DNA of 64,000 nt from Candidatus Curtissbacteria bacterium (GCA_024654445.1 JANLHP010000022.1:15332-79331); one strand, 5' to 3'; positions 5,046 to 64,000 are shown, counted from the first letter of the stretch. A program made the numbers and translations. Notes: generated by a model not told the origin, from the letters alone.

Positions 5046-5068
5046 ATTTACTTAAATAAATTATTCAT

Positions 5069-5210
5069 GGACTAAAGCCCATGATTAGGCCCGGAATCAC
5101 ATTTAGTTACATAAATATGACGAGGACCGCATGGCACTGTAGGTTTTGACATTCGCTTAAAGAATCACTCTCAGCCTCAACTTGAAAGCTGGGGCTTCTC
5201 GCTCACAATA
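5069..5210 (+). repeat. Intergenic repeat element, copy A (forward). Its 3' part overlaps the C-terminal codons of the ORF 5177..6709.
   Basis: Shares ggactaaag..ttaggcccgga..GACGAGGACCGCAyGGCAyTGTA..ttttgaYATTCGCT..ctcgctcaYaata with copies at 17461, 35631 and 63582. Confidence 0.8.
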
Positions 5211-6709
5211 ACCTTGTTTATAAATTTGTCGATCTCCATAAAAGATTTGATGCCAAAAGCAGAAACATAATGATTCGAAAATTTATTTTGATAAAATCTC
5301 TGCCTTTTTAGTTTATTTTTGTCGTATAAAATCTTTTTAATGCCAACATCAATATCTTCAAGCTGATCAAATTTTATGTTTATCGAGCTCTTACTTTTAA
5401 CAAAAGGATCCCCGAATTTTCCAGACAGAAATGAATTATCGAAGTAGAGTGTTGGCTTATTTTTCAAAATTGCAATCAGACCCGCAGTTGTCGCGCCTGT
5501 TATTACAACGTCACTCTTATTAATAACATTTTCTACCTTACTTGAATTATCCACCTTTACATTTGCGGGAAGTTCCAGATCGTCAAGGTCGTCCCTTAAA
5601 GAATAAGAAGGGTGGTTTCTCAGAATAATTCTAAATCCCGAATCTAATTTTGAAAGCCCTTTAACTAGCTTTTCAATCGATTGTTTATTCGAGTACCTTA
5701 AAAAAAGAGACAAAGTTCCAAAAATAGGTGCCCATAAAACTAAAACGTTTATGATCTTTTTTTCTTTCAAGTTAACATGATTAATGTGTTTCGGCCTTTT
5801 ATAATACGGACAGCCGGCTATATATGCATTTTTAGGGTGGATCATTTTCGCCAGTCTGCCCCATACCAAATAATAATCAGAAAAGTAAAAATCAGATTCA
5901 ATTATTTCCCAGGTCGCTATTCCATGTTGAATTTCAGCAACCTTTATTCCAAATGACTTCGCCATTAAAGCAAAAGCTGAGCCAAATGTATCATTGCTCG
6001 TTGAAGTTAAAATAACTTGAGGTTTCGCTCGTAAATAAAGATAAAAGGCAAAATTTAAAAAAGAAACAATTTCAGGAAACAAAAAAAGCCTTAAATACCA
6101 TAATCTGAGCGTCCAGGGTCGACCGGCAAGAAGTGCATTCTCATTTTCTACCCGCCATCTTCTAAAGACAAAAAAAGATAAGGCTTTCAACCGCTCGCGT
6201 CGTGATTGGTACCTTTGAGTGTTGGTGAGATTTAAAAATGAAATATTGATACTTTTCAGATATTTTTGATCAACCTCTGTTATTTTCCCGACGACTAAAA
6301 CCTTCCTCCTCTTTGAGAGGTACTTAATGAGTGGCAAAAGACCACTTAGGTGCCTGCCGCTAGCCACTATTAAAACCTCAGATGCCACATGTGGCCATTT
6401 AATTTTTGCCCTTGGCGCCACAATCAATTTAAGAAGGTGAGTAAGCTTTGATGCATATTTAAGTGCCTTTCGGCCGGGACTTAAGGAGTAAGCAAACGTT
6501 TGTGGGTATTGTCCCCAAACGTCATCTATAGGCTGCTTTTGTAAAAGCGACGAAAAAAAATGATGCTGAGAGAAAGCCTGAATTTTTTCCAGTGATATGC
6601 CATAAAACTTATAATTATTATTCGGATAATACTTGGAGATCCAGTTTTTCGACAAATCAACTGAATAGTCGTACAAGTTTTTTGACTTATTAAATGAGGA
6701 AGCAATCAC
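5177..6709 (-). CDS. GT-B-like protein with an HP motif; putative CMP-ulosonic-acid (sialyl/Kdo-type) transferase. A TagF-like glycerophosphotransferase is the alternative.
   Basis: It carries an RNHPSY (HP) motif and a GCPYY motif, and is paralogous to 15055..16371 (RPHPW, GTPRFE). It lies between a methyltransferase and the nonulosonate synthase operon. Confidence 0.35.
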   Translation of the reverse strand: MIASSFNKSKNLYDYSVDLSKNWISKYYPNNNYKFYGISLEKIQAFSQHHFFSSLLQKQPIDDVWGQYPQTFAYSLSPGRKALKYASKLTHLLKLIVAPRAKIKWPHVASEVLIVASGRHLSGLLPLIKYLSKRRKVLVVGKITEVDQKYLKSINISFLNLTNTQRYQSRRERLKALSFFVFRRWRVENENALLAGRPWTLRLWYLRLFLFPEIVSFLNFAFYLYLRAKPQVILTSTSNDTFGSAFALMAKSFGIKVAEIQHGIATWEIIESDFYFSDYYLVWGRLAKMIHPKNAYIAGCPYYKRPKHINHVNLKEKKIINVLVLWAPIFGTLSLFLRYSNKQSIEKLVKGLSKLDSGFRIILRNHPSYSLRDDLDDLELPANVKVDNSSKVENVINKSDVVITGATTAGLIAILKNKPTLYFDNSFLSGKFGDPFVKSKSSINIKFDQLEDIDVGIKKILYDKNKLKRQRFYQNKFSNHYVSAFGIKSFMEIDKFINKVIVSEKPQLSS

Positions 6710-17376: not shown

Positions 17377-17460
17377 GAAGTCAAAAGTCTCCGTATTTTA
17401 TGCGAATTGTTGCCACATTTACAAGGTGATCACATAAAGTACAGCTCAGAAGTTACTTTA

Positions 17461-17701
17461 TTATGAGCGAGAATTCCTCGGCCTTTAAAGCCGAGGATGA
17501 GAGTGAGCGAATATCAAAATATGCACTGCCCTGTGGTCCTTATCAAGTCAGACTCGACTCCAGGCTTAATCGTGGACGAAAATCCGCATGTAGTTTATCG
17601 ACTTACCAGAAGACCACGGCTTCCAGCCGTGGATGAATGGCAGGAGGCGATTCAGACCAAGCGAAGCTTGAATTGAGTTGAAAGAGGACCACGGGCTATG
17701 C
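17461..17701 (-). repeat. Intergenic repeat element, copy B (inverted, 17461-17600), plus an additional forward core-like segment at 17681-17701.
   Basis: The reverse complement of 17461-17600 aligns nearly base-for-base with copy C, including the perfect hairpin CCTCGGCC-TTTAAA-GGCCGAGG. Confidence 0.8.
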
Positions 17702-34718: not shown

Positions 34719-35630
34719 TTAACTAAAATCCCCATCCCAGCGTAAAATAGGCATTTTCGTTCCGAGGTTTTTCTTTATCATAACTACCCTGATTGGGAAC
34801 AATAGAACCCTTAAAAGAGGACTTCTTTCGACACTCGATCTAAACATTCTAAATCTTGACTTTAAATAGTTTTTAATCCGAAATGTATAATAAAACTTAG
34901 CCGAACAATATTGTTTCATCAGTTCATAAGAATCACGCTCTGCAAATTTTGAATTCTTAATTATTGTGCTGTTCGCCTTTACTTTATGCACAAAAAGGTT
35001 AACCCTGCAAAATCTAACTTTCCCTCCTCTCTCTAAGGATTGGAGGGCGTAAGCGACGTCAGAACTTACTCTTGATGGATATAAGCCGATTAAGGGGATG
35101 GAACTTCGCCTCGTTATAAACCCAACTCCGCATGCACCATAATTGAAAAAGTCCTCGTAATTTTTGCCGTATTCAATACCCGGAGGAACATAAACTTGTC
35201 TTATGTTTCTGCCGATCATTTTTGATCCACCGCAGATTAATAGATCGATATCCTTATTTTTTCCCAGAACCTTAATGGCTTTTTCCATCGCCTCCGGATA
35301 AATAATATCGTCGTCGCTTATATTTTTGATATATTTTCCTCTCGCTAGCATGATCCCCTTGTTGAAGGCATGTGTAGGGCTTATATCAGGTTCGGAAATA
35401 TACACATTTACAAGTTTTCTGTATTTTTTCATAAATGCAGCAGGATCAATTTTAGACAAGCTATCAACAACTATTAACTCATCTGATGAGTTCAAAAGCC
35501 CCTCGATATTTTTAAGTATTGCCTCGATCGATTTTCCTCTATTTTTAATTGTCAAAATATAGGAGATTCTTTTTTTTGAGTAGGAATCAAAACTTGGGCG
35601 CCCTTGCATCAGTGGAAATAAACTACACAC
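34719..35630 (-). CDS. GT2-family glycosyltransferase (GTG start).
   Basis: ISYILTIKNRG and SDDDIIYPE (DXD) GT-A motifs. Confidence 0.65.
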   Translation of the reverse strand: MCSLFPLMQGRPSFDSYSKKRISYILTIKNRGKSIEAILKNIEGLLNSSDELIVVDSLSKIDPAAFMKKYRKLVNVYISEPDISPTHAFNKGIMLARGKYIKNISDDDIIYPEAMEKAIKVLGKNKDIDLLICGGSKMIGRNIRQVYVPPGIEYGKNYEDFFNYGACGVGFITRRSSIPLIGLYPSRVSSDVAYALQSLERGGKVRFCRVNLFVHKVKANSTIIKNSKFAERDSYELMKQYCSAKFYYTFRIKNYLKSRFRMFRSSVERSPLLRVLLFPIRVVMIKKNLGTKMPILRWDGDFS

Positions 35631-35763
35631 GGACTAAAGTCCGTGGTTAGGCCCGGAGTCGAGTCTGACTCGACGAGGACCGCACGGCATTGTATATTTT
35701 GATATTCGCTCATAGATTCACCCTCGTCCGGGTTTAAAAGCCGAGGTTTTCTTGCTCATAATA
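35631..35763 (+). repeat. Intergenic repeat element, copy C (forward). It lies in the divergent region between the GT2 gene and gmhA, directly abutting the GTG start of the GT2 gene.
   Basis: Contains GACGAGGACCGCACGGCATTGTATATTTTGATATTCGCT and the ggactaaagtcc and gtcgag..ctcgac hairpins. Confidence 0.8.
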
Positions 35764-35789
35764 ATATCAGATCTTACTAGAAATTAAAA

Positions 35790-45095: not shown

Positions 45096-45965
45096 TCATC
45101 CCTCTATAATTTCTTTTCTCGCCGCCCTTAGCTCTTCTTCGGAAAGCGCCGCGTTATGCCACCTTAAATTATTTTCCATAAACGAAACACCCTTACCCTT
45201 TATTGTGTTAGCGATAACAACTACCGGCTTTTTAGAAAGTTCAATCTTGCCAAATGTGCCCAGAATCTCACCAAAATCGTGACCGTTAATTTCAAAAATA
45301 TTCCACCCAAAGCTCATCATTTTCTCCTTAAAGTTTTTATACAGTCCTTCGTCATCGATGACATCAGTTACCATTAATCTGTTTCTGTCTATAATTACGA
45401 CTAAATTATTGAGTTTGTAATCACTTGCGAAAATAACCGATTCCCAAATAGAACCCTCGAAAGGCTCAGAATCGCCGATAATAGTATATGCTCTGTAATT
45501 TTCCCCGTTTTTTTTAGCAGCGAGAGCAATGCCGGCAGCAACCCCAACCGAATGACCAATTGAACCCGTGTTAAAATCCACCCCGTTTATCCATGTTTCC
45601 AGCTGACCTCCAAGTCCACCATTTTCGCCGTAAGAGCTATACATCTCTTTTGAAATTATTCCTAAATCTAAAAAGATTGCGTAAAGAGCGGTACAGGCAT
45701 GTCCCTTACTTAAGATAAACCGATCCCTATTTTCCCAGTTCAAATTATTCGTTTTATAACGTAAAATTTTTCCGTAATACAAAGCCACCAGTAATTCGAC
45801 GCAAGAATAAGTTCCTCCAAGATGAGCCTTACCGCTTTTCGCGGCCGCGTTTAAAACCTCGAGTCGTACCCACCTTGATTTATCTTTAAGATCGGCTTTT
45901 AGGCCCGCAGTCGAAGACGAGGACCGCAAGCCCCGCTTCTTCGCAGAAAGGCTTTGCTTCTTCAT
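45096..45965 (-). CDS. Transketolase N-terminal subunit (TPP-binding).
   Basis: GHxG...GDSE...ESV TPP-binding motif (TIIGDSEPFEGSIWES). Confidence 0.85.
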   Translation of the reverse strand: MKKQSLSAKKRGLRSSSSTAGLKADLKDKSRWVRLEVLNAAAKSGKAHLGGTYSCVELLVALYYGKILRYKTNNLNWENRDRFILSKGHACTALYAIFLDLGIISKEMYSSYGENGGLGGQLETWINGVDFNTGSIGHSVGVAAGIALAAKKNGENYRAYTIIGDSEPFEGSIWESVIFASDYKLNNLVVIIDRNRLMVTDVIDDEGLYKNFKEKMMSFGWNIFEINGHDFGEILGTFGKIELSKKPVVVIANTIKGKGVSFMENNLRWHNAALSEEELRAARKEIIEG

Positions 45966-49684: not shown

Positions 49685-50674
49685 TTATCTTGCATAGTAA
49701 TCTCTCCAGTAATCGAGCATATCAAGAAGCGTTTTTTCAAAGGGAATTTCAGCCTTCCAACCGGTTTCGCGACTAAACTTACCAACAGCAGGAATTTGAA
49801 GTGTGACATCAGAAGGCCTCAACCTTTTTTTGTCAACTATGATTTTTATATCATCTCGCGTCGACATTTTTATTAGCTTATTTAACATCTGCCCAATAGT
49901 CATCGTTTCAACTCCGCCAATATTATAAACTTCGCCTGCTCTACACCTGGTAACCAAAAGCCAGTAAGCGCGAACAGCATCCCTCACGTCCATAAAAGTT
50001 CTGACGCTTTTTAAATTTCCGACATACACAGTTGGCTTTTGTTTGCCAGCCTCGATGGCTGCAACTTGCTTTGCGAAATTCGAGGGCGCAAAAACTTCAC
50101 CCCTTCTTGGACCCTCGTGTGTAAACATGCGTGTTCTTATCGCCCTAATTTTCCAAGACGACCAATACTGAAAACCCAACATGTCCTCTGCAACTTTAGA
50201 AACCGCGTAAGGCGATGCCGGCCTAAAAGGATTAGTTTCGACAATAGGTATTTCGCTTTTCAAAACCTGTCCGTAAACTTCGGAAGAGCTGCAAACATGA
50301 ATAATTGGGTCATAACCCTTTTCATCTTTTAGCTGTTTAACATTCTCCAAAAGATTGCCCGTTCCAATAACATTCGCTTCAAGCGTCCCAATTGGAGCGA
50401 TAAAACTAAAATCTACATAAGATTGCGCGGCAAGATGAAAAATAACGTCGGGCTTATGTTTTAAAAGTACACCGCGAGTGGAAAAGGGATCAACCAAATC
50501 GCCGTATTCTAAAATTACACGATCCAAAACGTGCTTTATGTTATCTTTTGGAGATCTCCACCTGACGAATCCGACAACTTCAACTCCCGGCTGGTTCTCT
50601 AGAATATAATCCACCATATGACTTCCCACAAATCCGGTTATACCCGTAATTAATACTTTTTTGATTTGTCCCAT
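49685..50674 (-). CDS. GDP-mannose 4,6-dehydratase family enzyme (Gmd/Rmd/GDP-heptose dehydratase type).
   Basis: ITGITGFVGSH, SSSEVYG, and SPYAVSK...THEGPRRGE motifs of the GMD family. Confidence 0.75.
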   Translation of the reverse strand: MGQIKKVLITGITGFVGSHMVDYILENQPGVEVVGFVRWRSPKDNIKHVLDRVILEYGDLVDPFSTRGVLLKHKPDVIFHLAAQSYVDFSFIAPIGTLEANVIGTGNLLENVKQLKDEKGYDPIIHVCSSSEVYGQVLKSEIPIVETNPFRPASPYAVSKVAEDMLGFQYWSSWKIRAIRTRMFTHEGPRRGEVFAPSNFAKQVAAIEAGKQKPTVYVGNLKSVRTFMDVRDAVRAYWLLVTRCRAGEVYNIGGVETMTIGQMLNKLIKMSTRDDIKIIVDKKRLRPSDVTLQIPAVGKFSRETGWKAEIPFEKTLLDMLDYWRDYYAR

Positions 50675-50747: not shown

Positions 50748-52031
50748 TTAATCATTCAATGAATGTCTCTGCCATTTAAGCATGGGCCTTACGACGCCAG
50801 GATAAAATCCTGTTGAGTGTCCGCGAACCGAGTTTCCTTCAGTCGGATCAACTACATCAAAAACAACCGCGTCAGGAACATCGACCTCTCGCGTCTTGCC
50901 ACTCTCCTCATCAACGACAGTAACCCTAGCAGAAAAAACTCCTTCAGATAAAAAATTTCCCGGAATCACACATCTACTTTTATATTTTCCACTTTTTTTC
51001 ATTCTGATTTTCCTGTCTATATCCTCAGCAGAATTAAAAATGGTTAGGCCTTCACTATTTATAATTTGTAAATTGCATCCGACCCAGCGGTCCCCATTCG
51101 CAGAAAAGCTCTGCTTATTTTTCAAAACCTCAAATTCGACTTCTACGGTTATAGGTTTTCGTATATCAAAAGTATTAGACAAGCGATTATGCTTATCCAA
51201 GGCTTTGACGTTGATAAGCCGCACAACATTATTCGCAAACATACGGCTCGCAACCCTTTTTTTAAGTGAAGCATTGCTCCTTGTTTCTTCCAAATACCTC
51301 GAGACTATTTTTTCAGCGTTGCCGTCTGCAACAATTTTTCCGTCTTTTAAATAGATAACGCGCCGACAGATATTTATAACTGCAGGCAGATTATGAGAAA
51401 CAAAAAGGACAGTTCTGCCCTGCTTACTTACATCCTGCATTTTCCCCAGACTTTTCGATTGAAACGCTGCATCACCCACCGAAAGAACCTCATCGACAAT
51501 AAGTATTTCGGGTTCCAAATGAGCAGCCACAGCAAAAGCCAGCCTTGTATACATTCCAGAAGAATAATGTTTAACCGGCAGATCTAAAAATTTCTCCATC
51601 TCGGCAAAAGAAACAATCTCGTCAAATTTAGACTTTATTTCCAATCGAGTCATGCCCAAAATGGAACCATTTAAAAAAATATTCTCTCGTCCTGTCAGCT
51701 CCGGATGAAATCCGGTCCCAACTTCAAGCAAACTCGCAGTACGCCCCCTGAGTGTAATTTTTCCTTTTGTGGGAGGAGTAATCTGAGAAAGAATCTTCAG
51801 TAGCGTGCTTTTGCCGGCGCCATTTTTACCGATAATACCGACAACTTCGCCAGCGCCAACGTTGAAAGAAACGTTCTTTAGAGGCCAGAACTCATCTTCT
51901 CTTTTTGAACTAAAAACAGATAAAGGGTTTTTGGCAATTTGAGCAATCGAGTCACGAAGTGAATAATATTGTTGTCTTTCCGCAACCCTATATTTTTTAG
52001 AAACCGATTTAACTTCGATAATCGAACTCAT
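50748..52031 (-). CDS. wzt: ABC transporter ATP-binding protein of polysaccharide exporters (Wzt-like) with a C-terminal glycan-binding extension.
   Basis: Walker A GKNGAGKST, signature YSSGM, Walker B LIVDE, and a roughly 180 aa C-terminal beta-rich domain. Confidence 0.85.
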   Translation of the reverse strand: MSSIIEVKSVSKKYRVAERQQYYSLRDSIAQIAKNPLSVFSSKREDEFWPLKNVSFNVGAGEVVGIIGKNGAGKSTLLKILSQITPPTKGKITLRGRTASLLEVGTGFHPELTGRENIFLNGSILGMTRLEIKSKFDEIVSFAEMEKFLDLPVKHYSSGMYTRLAFAVAAHLEPEILIVDEVLSVGDAAFQSKSLGKMQDVSKQGRTVLFVSHNLPAVINICRRVIYLKDGKIVADGNAEKIVSRYLEETRSNASLKKRVASRMFANNVVRLINVKALDKHNRLSNTFDIRKPITVEVEFEVLKNKQSFSANGDRWVGCNLQIINSEGLTIFNSAEDIDRKIRMKKSGKYKSRCVIPGNFLSEGVFSARVTVVDEESGKTREVDVPDAVVFDVVDPTEGNSVRGHSTGFYPGVVRPMLKWQRHSLND

Positions 52032-52894: not shown

Positions 52895-53823
52895 TCAACA
52901 TATTTTGTAAGGCCCGCAGTAAACTGAACTTTTGGCTCCCACCCCAAAAGTTTTTTAGCTTTTACAATATTTGCCCATGTATTTTCAACATCACCGTTTT
53001 GCATAGGCATATTTTTAATAACAGCTTTTAAAGAAAGCAACTTTTCTAAAGTTTCAATAAACTCATTTAATGAAACCGGGTTACTGTTTCCCAAATTTAT
53101 GATCTCAAAATCCAAGTCAGTTTCGAGAGTTTTTACTATGCCGTCAATAATATCATCAATGTACGTATAATCTCGACTGCTATCTCCCTCGCCAAACTTT
53201 ATAATGGGTTTGTCTTCAAGTATGGCGTTAGTAAAAAGTGAAGGCGCCATGTCAACTCTACCCTTCGGACCATAGACCGTAAAAAATCGCAAAATTACAA
53301 TTTTAAGGCCGAAATTTTTATGAAAGCTCCTAGCAAAAAACTCTGCAGCTCTCTTAGAAGCTCCGTATGGAGAAACAATATTTTCGCAAAGATCATCTTC
53401 GGTGAACGGAATTTGCTTGCTGTTTCCATAAACGGAAGAAGAAGAGCCGAATATAAACTGCTTCACGTTCATGTCGCTAGCTGCCTTTAGAAGATTTGTT
53501 GTTCCCAAAACATTCACTTGTGAATACAGAAGCGGGTCCTCTATTGAAGGACGAACACCGGCCCTCGCCGCCAAATGGATAATCTTGTCAAATTTTTCGA
53601 CTTTAAATATCTCAGTAAGCTTTTTAAAGTCCAATATGTCAGCGCGAAACAATTTAAAATTTTTAGAACCAAGAACGTGATCAAGATTCCTCTCTTTAAT
53701 TTGTGGGTCGTAATAATTATTAAAGTTGTCAATTCCAACTACAGCATGTCCATCGCCAAGGAGTCTCTCAACAAGAGTCGAACCGACAAAACCTGCACAA
53801 CCTGTTACTAATATTTTGTGCAT
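52876..53823 (-). CDS. NAD-dependent nucleotide-sugar epimerase (UDP-glucuronate 4-epimerase-like).
   Basis: ILVTGCAGFVGS and YGASKRAAE catalytic motif. Confidence 0.65.
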   Translation of the reverse strand: MHKILVTGCAGFVGSTLVERLLGDGHAVVGIDNFNNYYDPQIKERNLDHVLGSKNFKLFRADILDFKKLTEIFKVEKFDKIIHLAARAGVRPSIEDPLLYSQVNVLGTTNLLKAASDMNVKQFIFGSSSSVYGNSKQIPFTEDDLCENIVSPYGASKRAAEFFARSFHKNFGLKIVILRFFTVYGPKGRVDMAPSLFTNAILEDKPIIKFGEGDSSRDYTYIDDIIDGIVKTLETDLDFEIINLGNSNPVSLNEFIETLEKLLSLKAVIKNMPMQNGDVENTWANIVKAKKLLGWEPKVQFTAGLTKYVEWLRAQ

Positions 53824-53825
53824 AT

Positions 53826-54782
53826 TTACGAAGTTGATCTGAAGTATTCGATGGTTTTCTGAAGACCTTCCTCAAGCGGTATTTTTGGTTGCCACCCGAG
53901 GTCTCTTTTCGCTTTGTTCGTATTAGGCTTCCTGATAAGAGGGTCATCTTCAGGTAAAGGCTCGGAAAAAATAATTTCGCTGGAGCTATTAGTAAGCGCC
54001 TTTATCATTTGCGCAAACTGTAAAATTGTTTTTTCGTCGTCATTACCAAGATTATATATCTCTCCACTACTGCCTTCTTCCATTGCGGCAATTTGTCCCT
54101 CTATTTGATCGTCAACGTAACAAAAAGATCTCGTCTGTTTTCCGTCGCCATATATAGTAATTCGTTCCCCAGAAAGTGCCTGATTTATAAAATTAACAAC
54201 CGCTCTCCCTTCGCTTGGATTCATCCTTGGGCCATAAGTATTAAAAATTCTGGTGATTCGCCCATCAAGTCCTTTCTTTCTCACAAAAGCGGAAACAATT
54301 GTCTCCCCAAATCTTTTTGCCTCATCGTAAACCGATCTTGGGCCAATCGTTGAAACATTTCCCCTGTAATCCTCACCCTGAGGAGACCTTTCCGGGTCGC
54401 CATACACCTCGCTCGTCGAGGCAAAACTTAATTTAGCGCCATGACGAGCGGCAAGCTCACACATATTCCAAGTTCCCGTTGTGTTTACGAGCATCGTTTC
54501 AAAAGGATGAGCCAAATAAGAAAATGGCGAGTTGGAATTTGGATCAGCCGGGGAAGCGAGGTGGTAAATCTTATTAAATTTAAATTTACGATTCGAAAAA
54601 GGTTTTATTACATCATGGTTTATGAAAGTAAAGTTCTTATCGTTAAGAAGATGCGCAATATTCTTTTGAGAACCTGTTATCAAATTGTCAACGCAAACAA
54701 CTTCGCTTCCCTCACCAAGCAATTTTTCAGAAAGGTGACTTCCTAAAAATCCAGCCCCACCAGTTACAAGCACCGTCTCCAT
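53826..54782 (-). CDS. UDP-glucuronate decarboxylase (UXS/ArnA-C-terminal-domain type; UDP-xylose or UDP-4-keto-pentose synthase).
   Basis: VLVTGGAGFLGSHL...VVCVDNLITGSQKNIAHLLNDKNFTFINHDV closely matches the UXS consensus. Confidence 0.85.
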   Translation of the reverse strand: METVLVTGGAGFLGSHLSEKLLGEGSEVVCVDNLITGSQKNIAHLLNDKNFTFINHDVIKPFSNRKFKFNKIYHLASPADPNSNSPFSYLAHPFETMLVNTTGTWNMCELAARHGAKLSFASTSEVYGDPERSPQGEDYRGNVSTIGPRSVYDEAKRFGETIVSAFVRKKGLDGRITRIFNTYGPRMNPSEGRAVVNFINQALSGERITIYGDGKQTRSFCYVDDQIEGQIAAMEEGSSGEIYNLGNDDEKTILQFAQMIKALTNSSSEIIFSEPLPEDDPLIRKPNTNKAKRDLGWQPKIPLEEGLQKTIEYFRSTS

Positions 54783-54817
54783 GTAATCATATTTTAACAG
54801 GATGAATTAACTTTTTA

Positions 54818-58089: not shown

Positions 58090-58123
58090 AAATATGAATT
58101 CTGCCTGATATAATCAAGTTTAA

Positions 58124-59707
58124 GTGAATGGACTCCTTAAACTACTTATCGCGGCTGCTCTTTTAAACTCTTTGTCGTGGATTATTTTAACTCCCGTTTG
58201 GCAATACCCGGATGAACAAGCGCATTTTTCTCAAGTACAGGATATGGCGGAAATTGGATATGTACCAACAAGCCTAAACACGTCCCAAGAAGTTTCCCTC
58301 TCTGAACAAATACTTGAAACCGAAAGAAACAACCTTGGAAACAACAAATTCACGTATCACCCGGAATATAAAATTAATTATGGCAACGGTTGGTATGGCC
58401 CCAGAGAACGGGAGCTTGCGCAATTACAAGAGTCAGAGCGCACAAACTTTGTAAAAAATGAAGCAACTCAAAACCCTCCTTTTTACTACACGCTCGCATC
58501 TATTTTTTATAACATCTTTGACGGTGGCAGTATCCTCAATCGCGTGTACGCGGTAAGGTTTATGTCTGCATTACTTTTTGTCGCAAATATTTATGTCGCG
58601 GCAAAAATTGGAAACATTGTCTTCCCTAAAGAGAAAATTTTAGCTTTCACAATTCCCACGCTTGTTGCTTTCAAGCCAATGCTTGTCCATGCGTCAACCG
58701 GAGTACTTCCCGACACGCTCACGAATCTCCTATTCAGCGCAGTACTGCTCGTTTGTTTAAAGATCATGACAGTTGGATTAAAAACAAAGTTCCTCCTTAT
58801 AGGGATTGTGCTCATAACAGCAGGAGTTTTTACTAGGCAGCAATTTCTTCTCGCAGTTCCAATTTTGGCAATAAGCGCCGCATTTAGCGTTTGGAAAAAG
58901 AAGAAGGTTCTTTCCTTGACAATCGCCTCAATTCTAATTATTGCAATTTGCCTTCTTGAAGCAGGTTACAGGTTTGCGTCAACCCCTTTTATTTCTTATT
59001 TTCGAATCCCGGAATTAAGTCTTATCAAAGTAGAATCTCTCGCAAGCGAATCAATTATCGATTATTTGAAATGGTCAATAAGGCAAACCATAGCTCAAAC
59101 TCTGCCTTGGTATTGGGGAGTCTACAAATGGCTGTCTTTAACAGTGCCGCATTTAAATTATCAAATTATAAATAGAATCATAATAGTCTCAGTCGTAGGA
59201 GTACTTCTAAGGTATTTCTTAGCCTTCCGTAACCGAAAATTTACCCAACAAGACGTATTGTTGACGTTTTTGATTATCGCAAGCCTTGTTTACTTTGCCC
59301 TCTTTTTAGTCTGGGATTACTTTTTCGTTCAAACTCACAATTTCCCATTTGGTTTTCAGGGAAGATATTTTTTTCCGCTCGTAGTTGCACATATAACGAT
59401 TCTATTGCTTGGGCTTATGGAAATTGCCCGATTAATTTTAAAAGACAGGGCGTGGCTTTTGGCACCTTTACTTGTCGCGGCGATGATTATTTTTAATTGG
59501 GTTTCTCTGTTTACCGTTGCTTCCTCATACTACGGCACATCAAATCTTAACCTTTTTATAGATCAGGCCAGTCAGTACAAACCCGAAATCGTAAAGGGTA
59601 ATGCAATCCTTCTTATACTGCTGCTATCAATTGTGTCCCAAATAATCCTCGTTTTAAATTTTTCTAAATTTACTCTCAAGCATCCTAAATGGCAAACAGA
59701 AAGGTAA
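58124..59707 (+). CDS. DUF2142/GT-C-like polytopic membrane protein (GTG start).
   Basis: YPDEQAHF motif near the N-terminus and many TM helices. It is a paralog of 2623..4119. Confidence 0.45.
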   Translation: MNGLLKLLIAAALLNSLSWIILTPVWQYPDEQAHFSQVQDMAEIGYVPTSLNTSQEVSLSEQILETERNNLGNNKFTYHPEYKINYGNGWYGPRERELAQLQESERTNFVKNEATQNPPFYYTLASIFYNIFDGGSILNRVYAVRFMSALLFVANIYVAAKIGNIVFPKEKILAFTIPTLVAFKPMLVHASTGVLPDTLTNLLFSAVLLVCLKIMTVGLKTKFLLIGIVLITAGVFTRQQFLLAVPILAISAAFSVWKKKKVLSLTIASILIIAICLLEAGYRFASTPFISYFRIPELSLIKVESLASESIIDYLKWSIRQTIAQTLPWYWGVYKWLSLTVPHLNYQIINRIIIVSVVGVLLRYFLAFRNRKFTQQDVLLTFLIIASLVYFALFLVWDYFFVQTHNFPFGFQGRYFFPLVVAHITILLLGLMEIARLILKDRAWLLAPLLVAAMIIFNWVSLFTVASSYYGTSNLNLFIDQASQYKPEIVKGNAILLILLLSIVSQIILVLNFSKFTLKHPKWQTER

Positions 59708-60849
59708 CCCTCGACGTTAAAAGAAATTTAGCAGTCATACTGCTTTTAGTTTTCGCAACTGCCCAATTCATTTTAATCCTGCGCCACAAAAATCCATACG
59801 TTTCAGACAGTTATTTTTATAAGCATACATACTATCAACTTAAAGGTTTAAGCTACGACGAGGCCCAAGCAAAAATCATTAGCGAAGTAGACCTGATAGC
59901 AGCGGACGAAATTACCAGAAATTTTTTTCAAAACAAGGAAACTTACGCTAATTCGTATTCATTTTTCCAAAAAAGACCCTTTTACCCTCTTACCGCGTAT
60001 TTGGCAAGCCTATTTAATCTCAACGATTATTTATCTTTTCAAATACCCGTATTTACCGCTTATATCTTAAGCGTTATTCTTGTGTTCCGCCTGTCAAAAG
60101 AAGGACTGGGCTACTTTTTTGCTATCATTTCAACTGCACTTTTTGTTTCTTTCTATCCGTTTCTTGACAGTTCAACTTATTTTTTAACAGACACAATCGG
60201 TTTTGCCTTTTGGTTAAGCCAGATATTCACGATTTACAATTACATCAAAAGTAAAAAGAGCAAATGGCTTATATTCTTCTTTATCTCTCTCTCAATCTCC
60301 CTCTTAAACAGAGAGCAAAGCGTTCTCATGGCGCCACTACTTATGAGCGCTTTAGTCCTTCAAAAACTCCTCTTACTAAAAGGCGCGAGTCAAATTAAAA
60401 AATTGCTCTTTGTTTCCTTCATCCCAATAATCTTATTCATCACTGTCTCCTTTATGTTAAAACTCCCAAATATATACGACACCATCAGCTACACTCAAAA
60501 TAATTACGGCTTGCGTTCAAACAAATTTACAGCGGAAGAAACTTTTAGGTATATGGCAAACGCGATTAAGATATCACATTATGTTTTTATAAGAGACATC
60601 GTCAGTCACCACTGGTGGTTACTCTTGTCCGCGCTGGCAGCAGTTAGTGCTTTGAGGTCTTTGGTAAAAGGGAAAAGAAATAATTTGGACATCCTTATTG
60701 TAAGCTCGGCCCTAGCTTCGTATCTGGCTATTTTTATCTATCCCGTTTTAAGTTACAGATATTTCTTGCCAATAGTTTTCGCTGTTTCATACTTCAGCGT
60801 AAAAATACTCCGAGATTATAATAAGGAAGTTATGTCAAAAAACAAATGA
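59689..60849 (+). CDS. Polytopic membrane protein of unknown function (polymerase, ligase or GT-C-like).
   Basis: Ten or more hydrophobic helices. It lies in an operon with a GT-C and an acetyltransferase. Confidence 0.35.
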   Translation: MANRKVTLDVKRNLAVILLLVFATAQFILILRHKNPYVSDSYFYKHTYYQLKGLSYDEAQAKIISEVDLIAADEITRNFFQNKETYANSYSFFQKRPFYPLTAYLASLFNLNDYLSFQIPVFTAYILSVILVFRLSKEGLGYFFAIISTALFVSFYPFLDSSTYFLTDTIGFAFWLSQIFTIYNYIKSKKSKWLIFFFISLSISLLNREQSVLMAPLLMSALVLQKLLLLKGASQIKKLLFVSFIPIILFITVSFMLKLPNIYDTISYTQNNYGLRSNKFTAEETFRYMANAIKISHYVFIRDIVSHHWWLLLSALAAVSALRSLVKGKRNNLDILIVSSALASYLAIFIYPVLSYRYFLPIVFAVSYFSVKILRDYNKEVMSKNK

Positions 60850-61385
60850 AAGCCAGGGAAGAGCTAGGCACTAAAAAAATTCTAGAGTTTGCGTTTTTTT
60901 CCTTTCTCCAACTGATTTATTGCCTCCTGTTTTTACCGCCTTTAAAAAAGATTTCCCTGGAGCTTTTGGGCGCCCGAATAGGGCAGGGGACAGTCATCAT
61001 GAATGCCAAATTTTTCAACTTGCACCACAATGGACTTAAAGGGTTCAAAACGGGAAGAGATTGTTTTATTGCCGATGATGTCCTTATCGATCTTTACGAC
61101 AACGTAACTCTCGAAGACCAAGTAACTCTGGCACAAAGAGTAACTGTGCTTACACATCTAAATGTGGGGTACAAAGATCATCCGCTTCAAAAGTATTTCC
61201 CGAAAAGATCAGAACCTGTAGTCTTTAAAAACGGTTGTGTAGTTGGCGCAAGTTCAACAATTCTCAGTGGCGTGACAATTGGAGAAAAATCCTTTGTTGC
61301 TGCCGCAAGCCTTGTAACAGAAAATGTGCCACCAAATACATTAGTTGGCGGAGTACCCGCGAAAATAATTAGGAAAATTAAATGA
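60846..61385 (+). CDS. Hexapeptide-repeat (left-handed beta-helix) acetyltransferase, sugar O-acetyltransferase type.
   Basis: Tandem hexapeptide repeats near the C-terminus (GCVVGASSTILSGVTIGEKSFVAAASLV). Confidence 0.8.
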   Translation: MKAREELGTKKILEFAFFSFLQLIYCLLFLPPLKKISLELLGARIGQGTVIMNAKFFNLHHNGLKGFKTGRDCFIADDVLIDLYDNVTLEDQVTLAQRVTVLTHLNVGYKDHPLQKYFPKRSEPVVFKNGCVVGASSTILSGVTIGEKSFVAAASLVTENVPPNTLVGGVPAKIIRKIK

Positions 61386-61945
61386 TGATTCCATTCTATG
61401 AATCATTAAGGCCACTCATCCTGCCTTTAAGTCAGATAGACAGCCTTCTGCCAAAGCAAGGAACAATCGTTGAGCTTGGATGTGGTCAAGCAGTAATTGC
61501 AATCTATCTGGCAAAAAACAAAAAAAGAAAAGTAATTGGAGTCGACCAAGACACTTCGAGGCTTCCAAAAAATTCCACAAAAAATCTAAAGTTTATAAAT
61601 GCCGATATCAGAACTTACAAATTGGAAAAAGCGGACGGGGTAGTAATATCAGATGTCCTTCATCATATCAGTTCAAAAGACCAAGAAAAAATCCTCCAAA
61701 ACATTGCAAATTCTTTAAGAAAGGGCAAGATATTGATTATAAAAGAGATCGACACGGAAGAGAAAGTTAGAAGCAAGTTATCACGTCTCTGGGATTTTAT
61801 CCTTTACCCTAGGGACCACATCGACTACTGGAGCTCGAGCGCCCTTAAGTCTCAGCTTGAGCGGTTAGGCTTCAGGGTTGAAATAAAAAGAACTATAAGA
61901 CCGTTTCCGGCGTCAACCACCCTATTTATTTGTATAAAAATGTAA
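61382..61945 (+). CDS. Class I SAM-dependent methyltransferase.
   Basis: TIVELGCGQAV motif I and the acidic post-I VIGVDQD. Confidence 0.75.
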   Translation: MMIPFYESLRPLILPLSQIDSLLPKQGTIVELGCGQAVIAIYLAKNKKRKVIGVDQDTSRLPKNSTKNLKFINADIRTYKLEKADGVVISDVLHHISSKDQEKILQNIANSLRKGKILIIKEIDTEEKVRSKLSRLWDFILYPRDHIDYWSSSALKSQLERLGFRVEIKRTIRPFPASTTLFICIKM

Positions 61946-61982
61946 TTTTTCCTAATAAATATGTGAGAAACTCATTTTTCAT

Positions 61983-63581
61983 ATGTACAAAAATTTAATC
62001 CGACATTGGCCACTATTGCTGATTGTAATTCTGGCATTTGTCTTAAGAGTTGTAAATCTAGAAAAACTTTTTTACTTCACATACGATGAATCTATACCTG
62101 CCTTCGTCGGAAGGAGACTGATTCTCACAAACCACATACCACTTATCGGGGGAGTAACACCCTTTGGATTCCACCTTGGACCATACTTTTACTGGCTCTT
62201 GGCACTGCTCTTATATATTGGCAAGTTAAATCCAATCGTGTGGGGAATTGCGGGGGCTCTTTTAGGAAGCGCCACAACTTTTATGGCGTATGTTGCGGGA
62301 CAAAAGTTCCTGAACAAAAAAGCCGGCGTAACGGCTGCCGTGTTTTGGGCATTTTCTTTTCTTGCGAATCTGTACGACAGACACTTTTGGGCTTTGTCTT
62401 GGGGTCCAATTATTTCACTGATCGTGTTGTTTTCTCTTCATGGAATAATCAAAGGAAATTCAAGATTTGTTTATCCACTCGCTGTCTCTGTCGCTTTTGG
62501 TATCCACGCCGACCCTTCCAACCTCGTATTTGTATTGCTCGTTGGGCTGGTGTGGGCAATCTACAAGTTGCCAATTACAAGACACACGCTTCTTGCCACG
62601 AGCTTAATTATTTTCTCATTCCTTCCCCTTGTCGCTTTCGACCTTAGACATGATTTTGCAAATACTCGACCTATGATTTCTCATTTCAAAAACTTTTCAA
62701 ACCGGCAGCCAGATCAAAAAACACTTTCACAAAGAGCGACTGACAACGCTATCATATTTCCCGCGGCCTTCGCGAGACTCGTTTATACTCTTGGAGACAA
62801 CGAAGTCTCTAAACAATACTCATACTGTGGAAATTACGTCGCCGAAAAAACAAGAATTATTCCAGTGTATTTGATACTACTGGCATCATCCCTCCTTACC
62901 GGCTTTGCGCTTTGGGGATTCAACCAAAAAACCAAAAACCCCGCCATCTTTATATCAGCCCTTCTTCTCGTAGTTTATTTTCTTGGCATCCAACTTTATG
63001 GAACCCTTGCAAAAGCGGATATTTTTGAACATTACATTTCAGGGACTTTCGCGATTTTTCTTTTAATTTTGGCAAAGGTTGTAAGCAAATTACCAAGAAA
63101 GCTTTGGCTCGTCGTACTGGCAATCTTTGTTGGCGCTAATCTCTACAAGCTGTTAATTGCCACCAACTCGCATGGGCTAACACAAAAGAGAGAGGCAATA
63201 GAATATGTTAATTCCAGAGTAGGGGACGCGCCTTTCTCCCTAGAATCAGTTTCTACGTGCTGGAAATACAATGGCTACAGATACCTGTTTACAGTTTTTG
63301 GCAAAGAACCCGTCAAAAGTTACGTCGACCCAAATTTCGCTTACCTTTATGGAACGACGACAGTTTGGGAAACCCACCCCGGCACGGTAATCGCTTTTGT
63401 TACTCACGACTTTTCTGAGGAGACCGAAGAGTTTTATAAAAGATATGCGCTTTTAAAATCCCACGAGGTGAGTTCGGGAATCTTCGGTAATATAGAAGTT
63501 ATAATGATGGATAACCAGATAAAATGGTTCGATGACATTAACACTAGTGTTAAACCGCCTTCTTTTGAACAACAGCGCTAA
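61983..63581 (+). CDS. GT-C-fold membrane glycosyltransferase (GT39/GT83-like).
   Basis: First-loop YDESIPAFVGRR acidic motif, more than 11 TM helices, and a C-terminal soluble domain. Confidence 0.6.
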   Translation: MYKNLIRHWPLLLIVILAFVLRVVNLEKLFYFTYDESIPAFVGRRLILTNHIPLIGGVTPFGFHLGPYFYWLLALLLYIGKLNPIVWGIAGALLGSATTFMAYVAGQKFLNKKAGVTAAVFWAFSFLANLYDRHFWALSWGPIISLIVLFSLHGIIKGNSRFVYPLAVSVAFGIHADPSNLVFVLLVGLVWAIYKLPITRHTLLATSLIIFSFLPLVAFDLRHDFANTRPMISHFKNFSNRQPDQKTLSQRATDNAIIFPAAFARLVYTLGDNEVSKQYSYCGNYVAEKTRIIPVYLILLASSLLTGFALWGFNQKTKNPAIFISALLLVVYFLGIQLYGTLAKADIFEHYISGTFAIFLLILAKVVSKLPRKLWLVVLAIFVGANLYKLLIATNSHGLTQKREAIEYVNSRVGDAPFSLESVSTCWKYNGYRYLFTVFGKEPVKSYVDPNFAYLYGTTTVWETHPGTVIAFVTHDFSEETEEFYKRYALLKSHEVSSGIFGNIEVIMMDNQIKWFDDINTSVKPPSFEQQR

Positions 63582-63672
63582 GACCGCATGCCACGGCCCT
63601 GAGTAATCGAAGGGGCTCTATATTAGGCCCGCAGTGTTTTGACGAGGACCGCAAGCTTTGCTTATACTCAAC
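63582..63672 (+). repeat. Intergenic repeat element, copy D (forward, shortened), upstream of the Wzx-like gene. Internally it forms a sigma70-like TTGACG-17nt-TTATAC arrangement.
   Basis: ttaggcccg...ttttGACGAGGACCGCAagc core, plus a second degenerate gaccgcatgccacggcc half-copy. Confidence 0.6.
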
Positions 63673-63679
63673 GAAGTAA

Positions 63680-64000
63680 ATGCTGACAAAGTTTAAAAAC
63701 CTTCTTTTCACAAAAACCGGCAAAGATACAGGCATAGTGTTAGCAGGAACAGTAATAAATGTTATCGCCGGAGGTTTATTCTTTGTGATTGCCCCTAGAC
63801 TCCTTGGCCCGGGAGATTTCGGAATATTTTCAACTGTAGTCGGAACTTGCTTGCTCGCAGTTTCAATTTCAAGCTTTGGAATAGACACCGGCATATTAAA
63901 ATTTGCTACCCGAACATCACCGAATGCGCCTTTCATCTTATCCGTTGCTCTGAAATCATATTTAGTTATCGGAGCGACAGTCGCGATCGTCGGGGTGTCT
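63680..64000 (+). CDS. Polysaccharide biosynthesis protein/flippase (Wzx/MOP family), 3'-truncated at the window edge.
   Basis: The N-terminus MLTKFKNLLFTKTGKDTGIVLAGTVINVIAGGLFFVIAPRLLGPGDFGIF is typical of MOP-flippase TM1-TM2. The reading frame is open to the window end. Confidence 0.5.
   Translation, partial: MLTKFKNLLFTKTGKDTGIVLAGTVINVIAGGLFFVIAPRLLGPGDFGIFSTVVGTCLLAVSISSFGIDTGILKFATRTSPNAPFILSVALKSYLVIGATVAIVGVS

Follow-up and report, generated by a model that had tools for sequence, protein, structure and literature searches.

In REP elements and at the ends of IS200/IS605 insertion sequences, a hairpin carries a guide tetranucleotide on the 5' side of its foot, and Y1 transposases process both as single-strand DNA at the replication fork (PMC6006769; PMC5027513). 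The insertion of IS200/IS605 elements takes place 3' of a tetra- or pentanucleotide of fixed sequence, and it is the lagging-strand template that determines their orientation (PMC6006769; PMC5027513). Among other small repeats, Rickettsia palindromic elements (RPE) colonize genes in frame, and promoters are found in Correia elements (PMC10969869).

Here, we describe a repeat family found in a window of 64,000 nt from a Candidatus Curtissbacteria bacterium (GCA_024654445.1, JANLHP010000022.1:15332-79331), one copy of which, copy D, lies in the 98-nt spacer directly 5' of a Wzx-like flippase gene. A first-pass annotation had read this copy as a near-consensus sigma70 promoter and had suggested that the family can donate promoter function to whichever module lies downstream. 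Our analyses make it fairly likely that the spacer is almost wholly mobile-repeat DNA, that the -10 beside it is native and the promoter a hybrid, and that the family is a selfish element and not a promoter module. Literature searches gave no earlier account of such a repeat in bacteria of the candidate phyla radiation (CPR).

Structure of the Repeat Element

The element is 45-60 nt long and consists of TTAGGCCCGCAG, a hairpin (Pa), the core GACGAGGACCGCA, a second hairpin (Pb) and TTA. Copies printed with their flanks read TTAGGCCCGCAG, Pa, GAGGACCGCA, Pb (commonest AAGC-NNN-GCTT) and A(T), and an alternative 3' tail, TGGCACTGTATA, defines variant 2. The tetranucleotide CGCA stands 0-1 nt before both hairpins and also in an extra TCGCAGAAA module, as part of the conserved tag (A/G)GGNCCGCA that precedes the hairpin of each unit. 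Such TCGCAGAAA-hairpin modules, extra or solitary, were found at 45941-45959 and 51098-51116 of the window and in L002 and L029. The hairpins co-vary. In Pa, 61 cells were altered on both sides, against 20 ± 4 in shuffles, and 79.7% of cells were paired, against 24-42% when the partner was slid; the stems of Pb are unrelated across copies yet always complementary (AAGC/GCTT, AAGGAA/TTCCTT, AAACAAGGTTTA/TAAACCTTGTTT).

Terminal inverted repeats are absent, the ends TTAGGCCCGCAG and ..AAGCTTTGCTTA not being inverted copies of each other, and TTA is fixed at both junctions of the element. A target duplication of TA/TTA fits the flippase site, while the filled/empty comparison in LepA gave no clean duplication, and a duplicated TA/TTA cannot be distinguished from a fixed target plus the element end. 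In eight of 39 family copies in L001-L064 and the window, at least 6 of 8 positions of the upstream flank agreed with the 3' strand of Pb, where 0.6 such copies were expected and 1000 shuffles gave three at most; either flanking duplications of considerable and variable length or a fold-back step in insertion may lie behind this.

Rfam searches of the window and nine loci gave no match at the gathering score, and only chance-level matches at E ≤ 10 in the regions of copies D and C; a tRNA/tmRNA scan of the window found none. Several known classes were considered and rejected: hammerhead, twister and HDV-type ribozymes (core motifs absent, no Rfam match), an integron attC site (GTTRRRY not consistently present), a sigma54 promoter in the TGGCAC tail (TTGC missing at the right spacing) and a classical MITE (no terminal inverted repeats; duplication possible at the copy D site, ambiguous at LepA).

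Comparison With Described Elements

Like REP/REPIN elements (RAYT, TnpA-REP) and IS200/IS605 (PATE-type) ends, the family joins variable hairpins to a conserved tag 0-1 nt 5' of them, lacks terminal inverted repeats, occurs in many copies per genome, has a fixed TTA at both junctions and shows a strong orientation bias relative to strand asymmetry. It departs from REPs in its tag, which is CGCA here and GTAG/GTGG there, and from REP/REPIN in that its two hairpins stand in direct and not in inverted order. Moreover, REPs are extragenic by definition and species-specific, whereas 27 of 70 copies of this family are intragenic and in frame and the core is identical across phylum-level CPR lineages, and its hairpin sequences vary far more than those of known TnpA substrates. 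In comparison with IS608, the standard skew polarity would place the strand with CGCA 5' of the hairpins on the leading-strand template, which would be the opposite arrangement, although the strand disparity of Microgenomates is itself atypical (PMC7143001).

The likeness to RPE, as these are described, lies in the presence of in-frame palindromic repeats in unrelated housekeeping genes and also between genes, with inserts apparently tolerated as extra peptide loops, continuous Pfam domains, and presence or absence among LepA homologs. In contrast to RPE, the present element is three times smaller (~45-60 nt versus ~100-150 nt), resides in CPR hosts, and has a modular tagged-hairpin build that is used in both orientations. 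With Correia elements (CREE) and promoter-bearing MITEs, it shares a small repeat just 5' of a gene that can contribute a promoter hexamer, here the -35 of copy D. Correia elements, however, carry whole promoters as part of their consensus, are bounded by terminal inverted repeats and prefer sites upstream of genes, whereas this family has no inverted termini, no consensus promoter (4 of 70 copies) and no orientation preference. We class the repeat as a new family of selfish elements, small and built of tagged hairpins, with a REP-like build and an RPE-like colonization of genes in frame.

Copies Within the Window

Four intact copies of the core GACGAGGACCGCA occur in the window, all on the + strand, which has a negative GC skew throughout, and a fifth, diverged copy lies on the - strand. 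Copy A (5054-5211, +; core 5085-5131), of a long form, is intergenic between two minus-strand genes and contains the stop codon of ORF 5177-6709. Copy B (17458-17598; core 17532-17569, 11.5 bits), also of the long form and with a diverged core, is the sole minus-strand copy. Copy C (35616-35764, +; core 35647-35684, 52.7 bits) is a third long form and is matched by covariance model R1. Copy X (45899-45959, +), likewise recognized by model R1, comprises a short core (45899-45928), Pb and the extra TCGCAGAAA-hairpin module at 45941-45959, and is antisense within the first ~22 codons of the transketolase-N ORF 45096-45965 (-). Together with the extra module it encodes, in antisense, the first ~22 residues (MKKQSLSAKKRGLRSSSSTAGLK) of this subunit; the true start may lie downstream, since the Pfam domain begins only at residue 33. 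The solitary single module TCGCAGAAA-AGCTCTGCTT (51098-51116, +) is antisense within ORF 50748-52031 (-).

The long form, represented by copies A, B and C and by L010, L020, L023, L040 and L061, is a conserved non-coding element of 150-260 nt in which the short core is embedded. Its flanks are unrelated between genomes, it has no Rfam match, and it is bounded by ATAAAC..hairpin on one side and by ..TTCTGCTAAGCGATTATAAA on the other, the latter reading TTCTCGCTCATAATAA in the window copies. In L010, the long form carries the variant-1 tail at the same internal site where the others have variant 2.

CGCA-tagged hairpins beyond the family were marginally enriched in the window, with 15 on the + strand versus 8 on the - strand. 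Possible solitary units within genes include AGACCCGCAG-hairpin, AGGGCCGCA-hairpin and CACCGCA-AGAATTtgaGAATTCT-TAT; the sites of such units or of weak model matches (6.5-7.9 bits) are 5483, 7288 and 46325 (+), 50189-50226 (-) and 52908-52946 (+).

Distribution Across Genomes and Insertion Within Genes

The family was scanned in one genome per species with the pattern TTAGGCCCG-N(6-36)-GACGAGGACCGCA (22-base core). A total of 64 loci were recovered, nearly all of them from Candidatus Curtissbacteria bins, where a single genome has as many as 8-9 exact-core copies; orthologous copies among them are not independent, so that the family counts are somewhat inflated. The remaining loci are labeled WWE3, Blackburnbacteria and Saccharimonadales, and viral contigs gave no match to the pattern.

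Long ORFs contain 27 of the 70 exact-core copies, 13 in sense and 14 in antisense. All of these preserve the frame and none introduces a stop, and the core is perfectly conserved at the nucleotide level in three reading frames and two orientations. Among the host genes are those for LepA (two genomes, same site), CysS, ArgS, NrdR, endonuclease III, TsaD, NAD kinase and Fpg, as well as for GT2, GT4 and GT-C-like enzymes, a ligase resembling MurC and a protein resembling dCTP deaminase. A single Pfam domain continues through the insert in CysS (domain 45-354, insert 166-175), Fpg (5-151, insert 93-106), Mur_ligase_M (592-732, insert 638-647) and the DALR domain of ArgS (524-657, insert 607-620). 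Most of the nearest LepA homologs in the protein database (71-79% identical) are without the insert, which is therefore polymorphic; the empty site reads NYTLNANLYTLNLID and the filled one NYTLDANS[LGPQSSLDSTRTASFA]YTLNLID. If the insert is translated, a junction peptide ..YSTLLGPQSEGRGPHGIVYTF.. is expected.

Several further observations concern these hosts. The LepA loop before (Y)xLNLIDTPGH holds other, unrelated insertions in CPR relatives (P0001, P0005, P0013 and P0015), one of which, LRQSQGDAEQSRSITV, resembles the segment lrqaqgntersrsitv of the TsaD of L041; judged from sequence, this likeness suggests that there are more families of in-frame repeats. In L081 (1780-1805), an in-frame TAA (..TNLKDL*RVKVGDT..) replaces the codon of lepA that specifies Ser in relatives, and the gene is called as two ORFs, which could reflect a sequencing error, a pseudogene or recoding. 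In L019 (1350-1500) and L056 (2620-2770), the element lies between duplicated GT2 N-termini (MQDTHLSVIIPA, element, new start MKLSVIIPAYNEEP); the 3' strand of Pb is here the coding sequence TCCCTGCT, and the 5' strand (AGCAGGGA) resembles a ribosome-binding site. In L053 (2423-2543), 10 nt separate a copy from a tRNA gene that lies on the other strand.

Orientation and Mobility

Intergenic copies showed no bias toward the next gene, 19 being co-oriented with it and 24 opposed. In contrast, the sense strand of the copy lay on the locally C-rich strand in 55 of 64 cases (p = 3.5e-9), and this bias was common to the intergenic copies (34:5) and, within genes, to those in antisense (11:2) and in sense (10:2). 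Because all three classes share it, orientation is set at the DNA level and not by transcription, and it is probably fixed by strand composition and replication; an unusual whole-chromosome strand disparity has been described for Microgenomates genomes (PMC7143001). Insertion in frame within genes, in both orientations, together with the predominance of the C-rich strand, is the behavior of an element that is selfish at the level of DNA.

The modular units, each made of a variable co-varying hairpin and a conserved tag, insert between genes and in frame within genes, and we propose that the element is most likely moved in trans by a single-strand DNA enzyme of the HUH/Y1 type, as REPs and IS200/IS605 ends are. 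No recurrent neighboring transposase emerged from all-against-all clustering of 735 flanking ORFs (450 kb of flanks), and Pfam matched none of the ten ORFs that adjoin copies A, B, C and X of the window to a transposase. The flanking-ORF clusters and the neighbors of the window copies comprised housekeeping and glycosyltransferase families only.

The Spacer Upstream of the Flippase Gene

The 5' part of the flippase gene (63680-64000, +; Pfam Polysacc_synt) begins with an ATG whose position is conserved in orthologs and which cannot be extended upstream because an in-frame TAA directly precedes it. The preceding gene, a membrane-protein ORF of 532 aa (61983-63581), ends in the TAA at 63579-63581 (+), as given by ORF analysis. 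Its last ~15 codons (63534-63581), encoding DINTSVKPPSFEQQR*, form a C-terminal extension that is missing in orthologs and begins after WFD, where the orthologs stop; this extension is probably derived from the decayed 5' half of an older repeat copy.

The 3' half of an older, diverged copy with a variant-2 tail (D1, 63582-63622, +), which aligns with the 3' half of the L014 copy, follows directly and reads GACCGCA-TGCCA-[hairpin 63595-63617 GGCCCTGAGTAATCGAAGGGGCT]-CTATA. It is succeeded by an intact short copy of variant 1 (D2, 63623-63664, +; 42 nt), delimited by model R1 and the family alignment, in the order TTAGGCCCGCAG, vestigial Pa (GTGTTTTGAC), GAGGACCGCA, Pb (AAGC-TTT-GCTT, 63653-63663) and A. 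Model R1 matched 63623-63653 with 42.6 bits (E = 1.3e-8), so copy D is a true member of the family, as had been claimed, although 3 of 8 pairs of its Pa are broken. A weak terminator-like hairpin of 5 pairs, GGGCT-ctatatta-GGCCC followed by GCAGTGTTTT (63613-63630, +), spans the D1/D2 junction. The motif CCTGAG-N(3-6)-TCGAAGG, present at 63597-63615, recurs as an inner motif of many Pa hairpins and also stands alone in the flanks of L009, L059 and L063; it may be a separate nested mini-repeat.

The hexamers of the first-pass annotation lie exactly where it had placed them: TTGACG at 63639-63644, a 17-nt spacer (aggaccgcaagctttgc) and TTATAC at 63662-63667, ending 12 nt 5' of the ATG at 63680. 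A consensus scan favored TTGACG-18-TATACT instead (TATACT 63663-63668, 11 nt 5' of the ATG), which matches 10 of 12 positions; with either -10, the near-consensus sigma70-type hexamers stand at a distance within the range of 16-18 nt. In the -35-like TTGACG (5/6, + strand), GACG belongs to the invariant core, in agreement with the earlier derivation from the repeat, and TT comes from the loop of the vestigial Pa. The hexamer arises because Pa has shrunk to GT-GTTTT-GAC; since L034 also has a minimal hairpin, GTC-TTT-GAC, the TTGACG of copy D may mark a subtype and not an adaptation. In the -10-like TATACT (5/6, + strand), TA is the D2 end or a target duplication and TACT is native.

The scan thus recovered a 10/12 pair at the claimed site, but the density of matches was that of chance. 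Between 60000 and 64000, 11 pairs reached at least 9/12, against 7.3 ± 2.9 in shuffles; in the whole window, 22 pairs on both strands reached at least 10/12, against 15.6 ± 3.9 per strand in shuffles, 18 of these 22 lay inside coding sequence, and none reached 11/12. The hexamer match by itself is not above chance. What lifts this pair above it is its position in the spacer, as the sole match of at least 10/12 in the window that lies wholly within a spacer just 5' of a same-strand start, together with the conservation of its -10 in orthologs.

Orthologs of the Flippase Locus

From metagenomes, 16 relatives of the upstream gene were collected; the flippase gene follows it in nine loci (the window and L004 included). 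TATACT occurs 7-16 nt 5' of the flippase start in all nine, mostly as the block TATACTCAAC, which in the window occupies 63663-63672 and has no second occurrence there. Six of the nine loci are free of the repeat (L067, L071/L077, L072, L078, L069/L070 and L073), and in L069/L070 the TATACT box falls within the end of the coding sequence of the upstream gene. In L004, whose upstream protein is just 56% identical to that of the window, the insertion point of the window is occupied by an intact variant-1 copy, and in L066 a degenerate variant-2 copy ends exactly at TA|TACT. Comparing the filled site of L004 with the empty site of L067 gives AAAAATTG-TTA[GGCCC...GCTTTGC-TTA]TACT. From this comparison and from the presence of TATACT in repeat-free orthologs, we conclude that the -10 is native to the locus and that the element went in at its 5' edge. 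The -35 region, by contrast, is different in every ortholog (2-5 of 6 positions matching), without conservation; the TTGACG of the window ranks best, followed by TGGACG (L004), TTGATT (L067) and TTTACC (L066). The claim that copy D supplies the promoter-like boxes therefore stands for the -35, which comes from the repeat, and fails for the -10.

A promoter directly 5' of the flippase gene, giving an mRNA that is leaderless or has a leader of ~4 nt, is plausible on this sequence evidence because of the conserved -10, its distance to the start, the lack of any Shine-Dalgarno-like sequence in the 7-16 nt between TATACT and the start, and the like spacing at two other starts of the window. These have a -10-like box 8-9 nt upstream, TATAAT-9-GTG at 58124 (58095-58123) and TAAAAT-8-ATG for 53826-54782 (-) (54783-54800), and leaderless starts may be common in this organism. 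In the sequence of events that we propose, the element would have landed at TA/TTA on the 5' edge of a pre-existing -10, TATACT(CAAC), which would serve the flippase gene in this lineage with or without the repeat. Insertion would regenerate the -10 as TTA|TACT and displace the old upstream DNA, and with the reduction of Pa to GT-GTTTT-GAC the invariant GACG would come to be read as TTGACG 17-18 nt 5' of the -10. The likely outcome would be a hybrid sigma70-type promoter, composed of the native -10 and a repeat-derived -35, that would initiate ~4 nt before the ATG or at the ATG itself.

Discussion

The flippase gene could be expressed by read-through alone, because five tightly packed same-strand genes (58124-63581, overlapping or at most 37 nt apart) precede it; TATACTCAAC would then be conserved as a regulator site, a translation-initiation context or a site of RNA processing, and the repeat would be a neutral passenger. 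The chance density of the hexamer match and the unconserved -35 fit this account, but the conserved block holds the two most critical -10 positions (A2 and T6), lies at a leaderless or short-leader distance from the start in all nine loci with no Shine-Dalgarno-like sequence after it, and is spaced from the start as are the -10 boxes of other first genes in the window, and we regard read-through alone as unlikely. The opposite view, and that of the first-pass annotation for the family at large, makes the repeat a portable sigma70 promoter in the manner of Correia elements, which gives both boxes to any downstream gene. Promoters carried by MITEs have been described (PMC10969869), a 9/12 match is reached by ortholog L004, window copy C and L047 at the position where copy D reaches 10/12, and the element ends in TTA|TA or TGTATA, so that TATnnn often follows. 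Yet the family hexamer at this position is AGGACG in 33 of 70 copies, a match of 3/6, and TTGACG in two only, copy D and the copy of L034, the latter antisense inside a gene; the promoter scan criteria were passed there by just 4 of 70 copies. Besides the 27 copies inside genes, half of them antisense, and the 19 versus 24 intergenic orientations, copies A and X of the window run into or against genes of the minus strand, and the -10 exists without the repeat. A general donation of promoter function is thus not supported by the family, and a portable promoter is very improbable.

Nor do functions of the transcript account well for the family. A terminator or attenuator, an RNase target or a structured regulatory RNA would explain why the hairpins co-vary and why a hairpin with a T-run lies at 63613-63630, and REP and Correia-type repeats can alter mRNA stability or termination (PMC10969869; PMC6006769). 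However, that stem has only 5 pairs around an 8-nt loop, and folding of the copy D region was not better than that of shuffles (z = +0.43), with no z below -1.84 among the five window copies (-1.84 to +0.32 for A, B, C and X). Rfam gave no match, copies lie in both orientations within essential genes, where a terminator would be lethal, and orientation follows strand composition and not transcription; an RNA-level role is accordingly rated even lower, as highly improbable. It is hardly credible at all that the in-gene copies escape translation as tiny introns or by ribosomal bypassing, as an RNA- or translation-level device. The nucleotide-perfect core in three frames and two orientations and the duplicated gene starts around the element in L019 and L056 speak for removal, whereas the preserved frame without stops would be needless if the copies were removed, antisense copies are as frequent as sense ones, and no ribozyme or intron match was found in Rfam. 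A selfish DNA element that landed beside a native -10 remains our preferred reading.

The analysis separates a locus-specific promoter signal, with a conserved -10 and a leaderless-type placement, from the repeat that landed beside it, and cautions against calling every repeat copy of this glycosylation cluster a regulatory module. A wider reading, which we offer as a tentative possibility, is that CPR bacteria harbor an undescribed and still-active population of ~20-60 nt CGCA-tagged hairpin modules that copy through single-strand DNA, home to TTA and remodel proteins and promoters. The LepA loop, the edge of the flippase -10 and the same internal site of a 260-nt element are each known with both variant 1 and variant 2. 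If the wider reading is true, copying would be coupled to the unusual one-strand asymmetry of Microgenomates, the same TTA sites would be homed to repeatedly, essential proteins and promoters would be remodeled routinely, and the flippase promoter would be one case of a copy co-opted as a -35. Within genes, LepA, aminoacyl-tRNA synthetases, repair enzymes and glycosyltransferases gain 10-20 residues from the element. An abundant, cross-lineage element that lengthens proteins in this way is therefore relevant to gene calling, to the alignment of protein families and to any inference of "CPR-specific insertions", and its strong strand bias offers a handle on the replication of CPR genomes.
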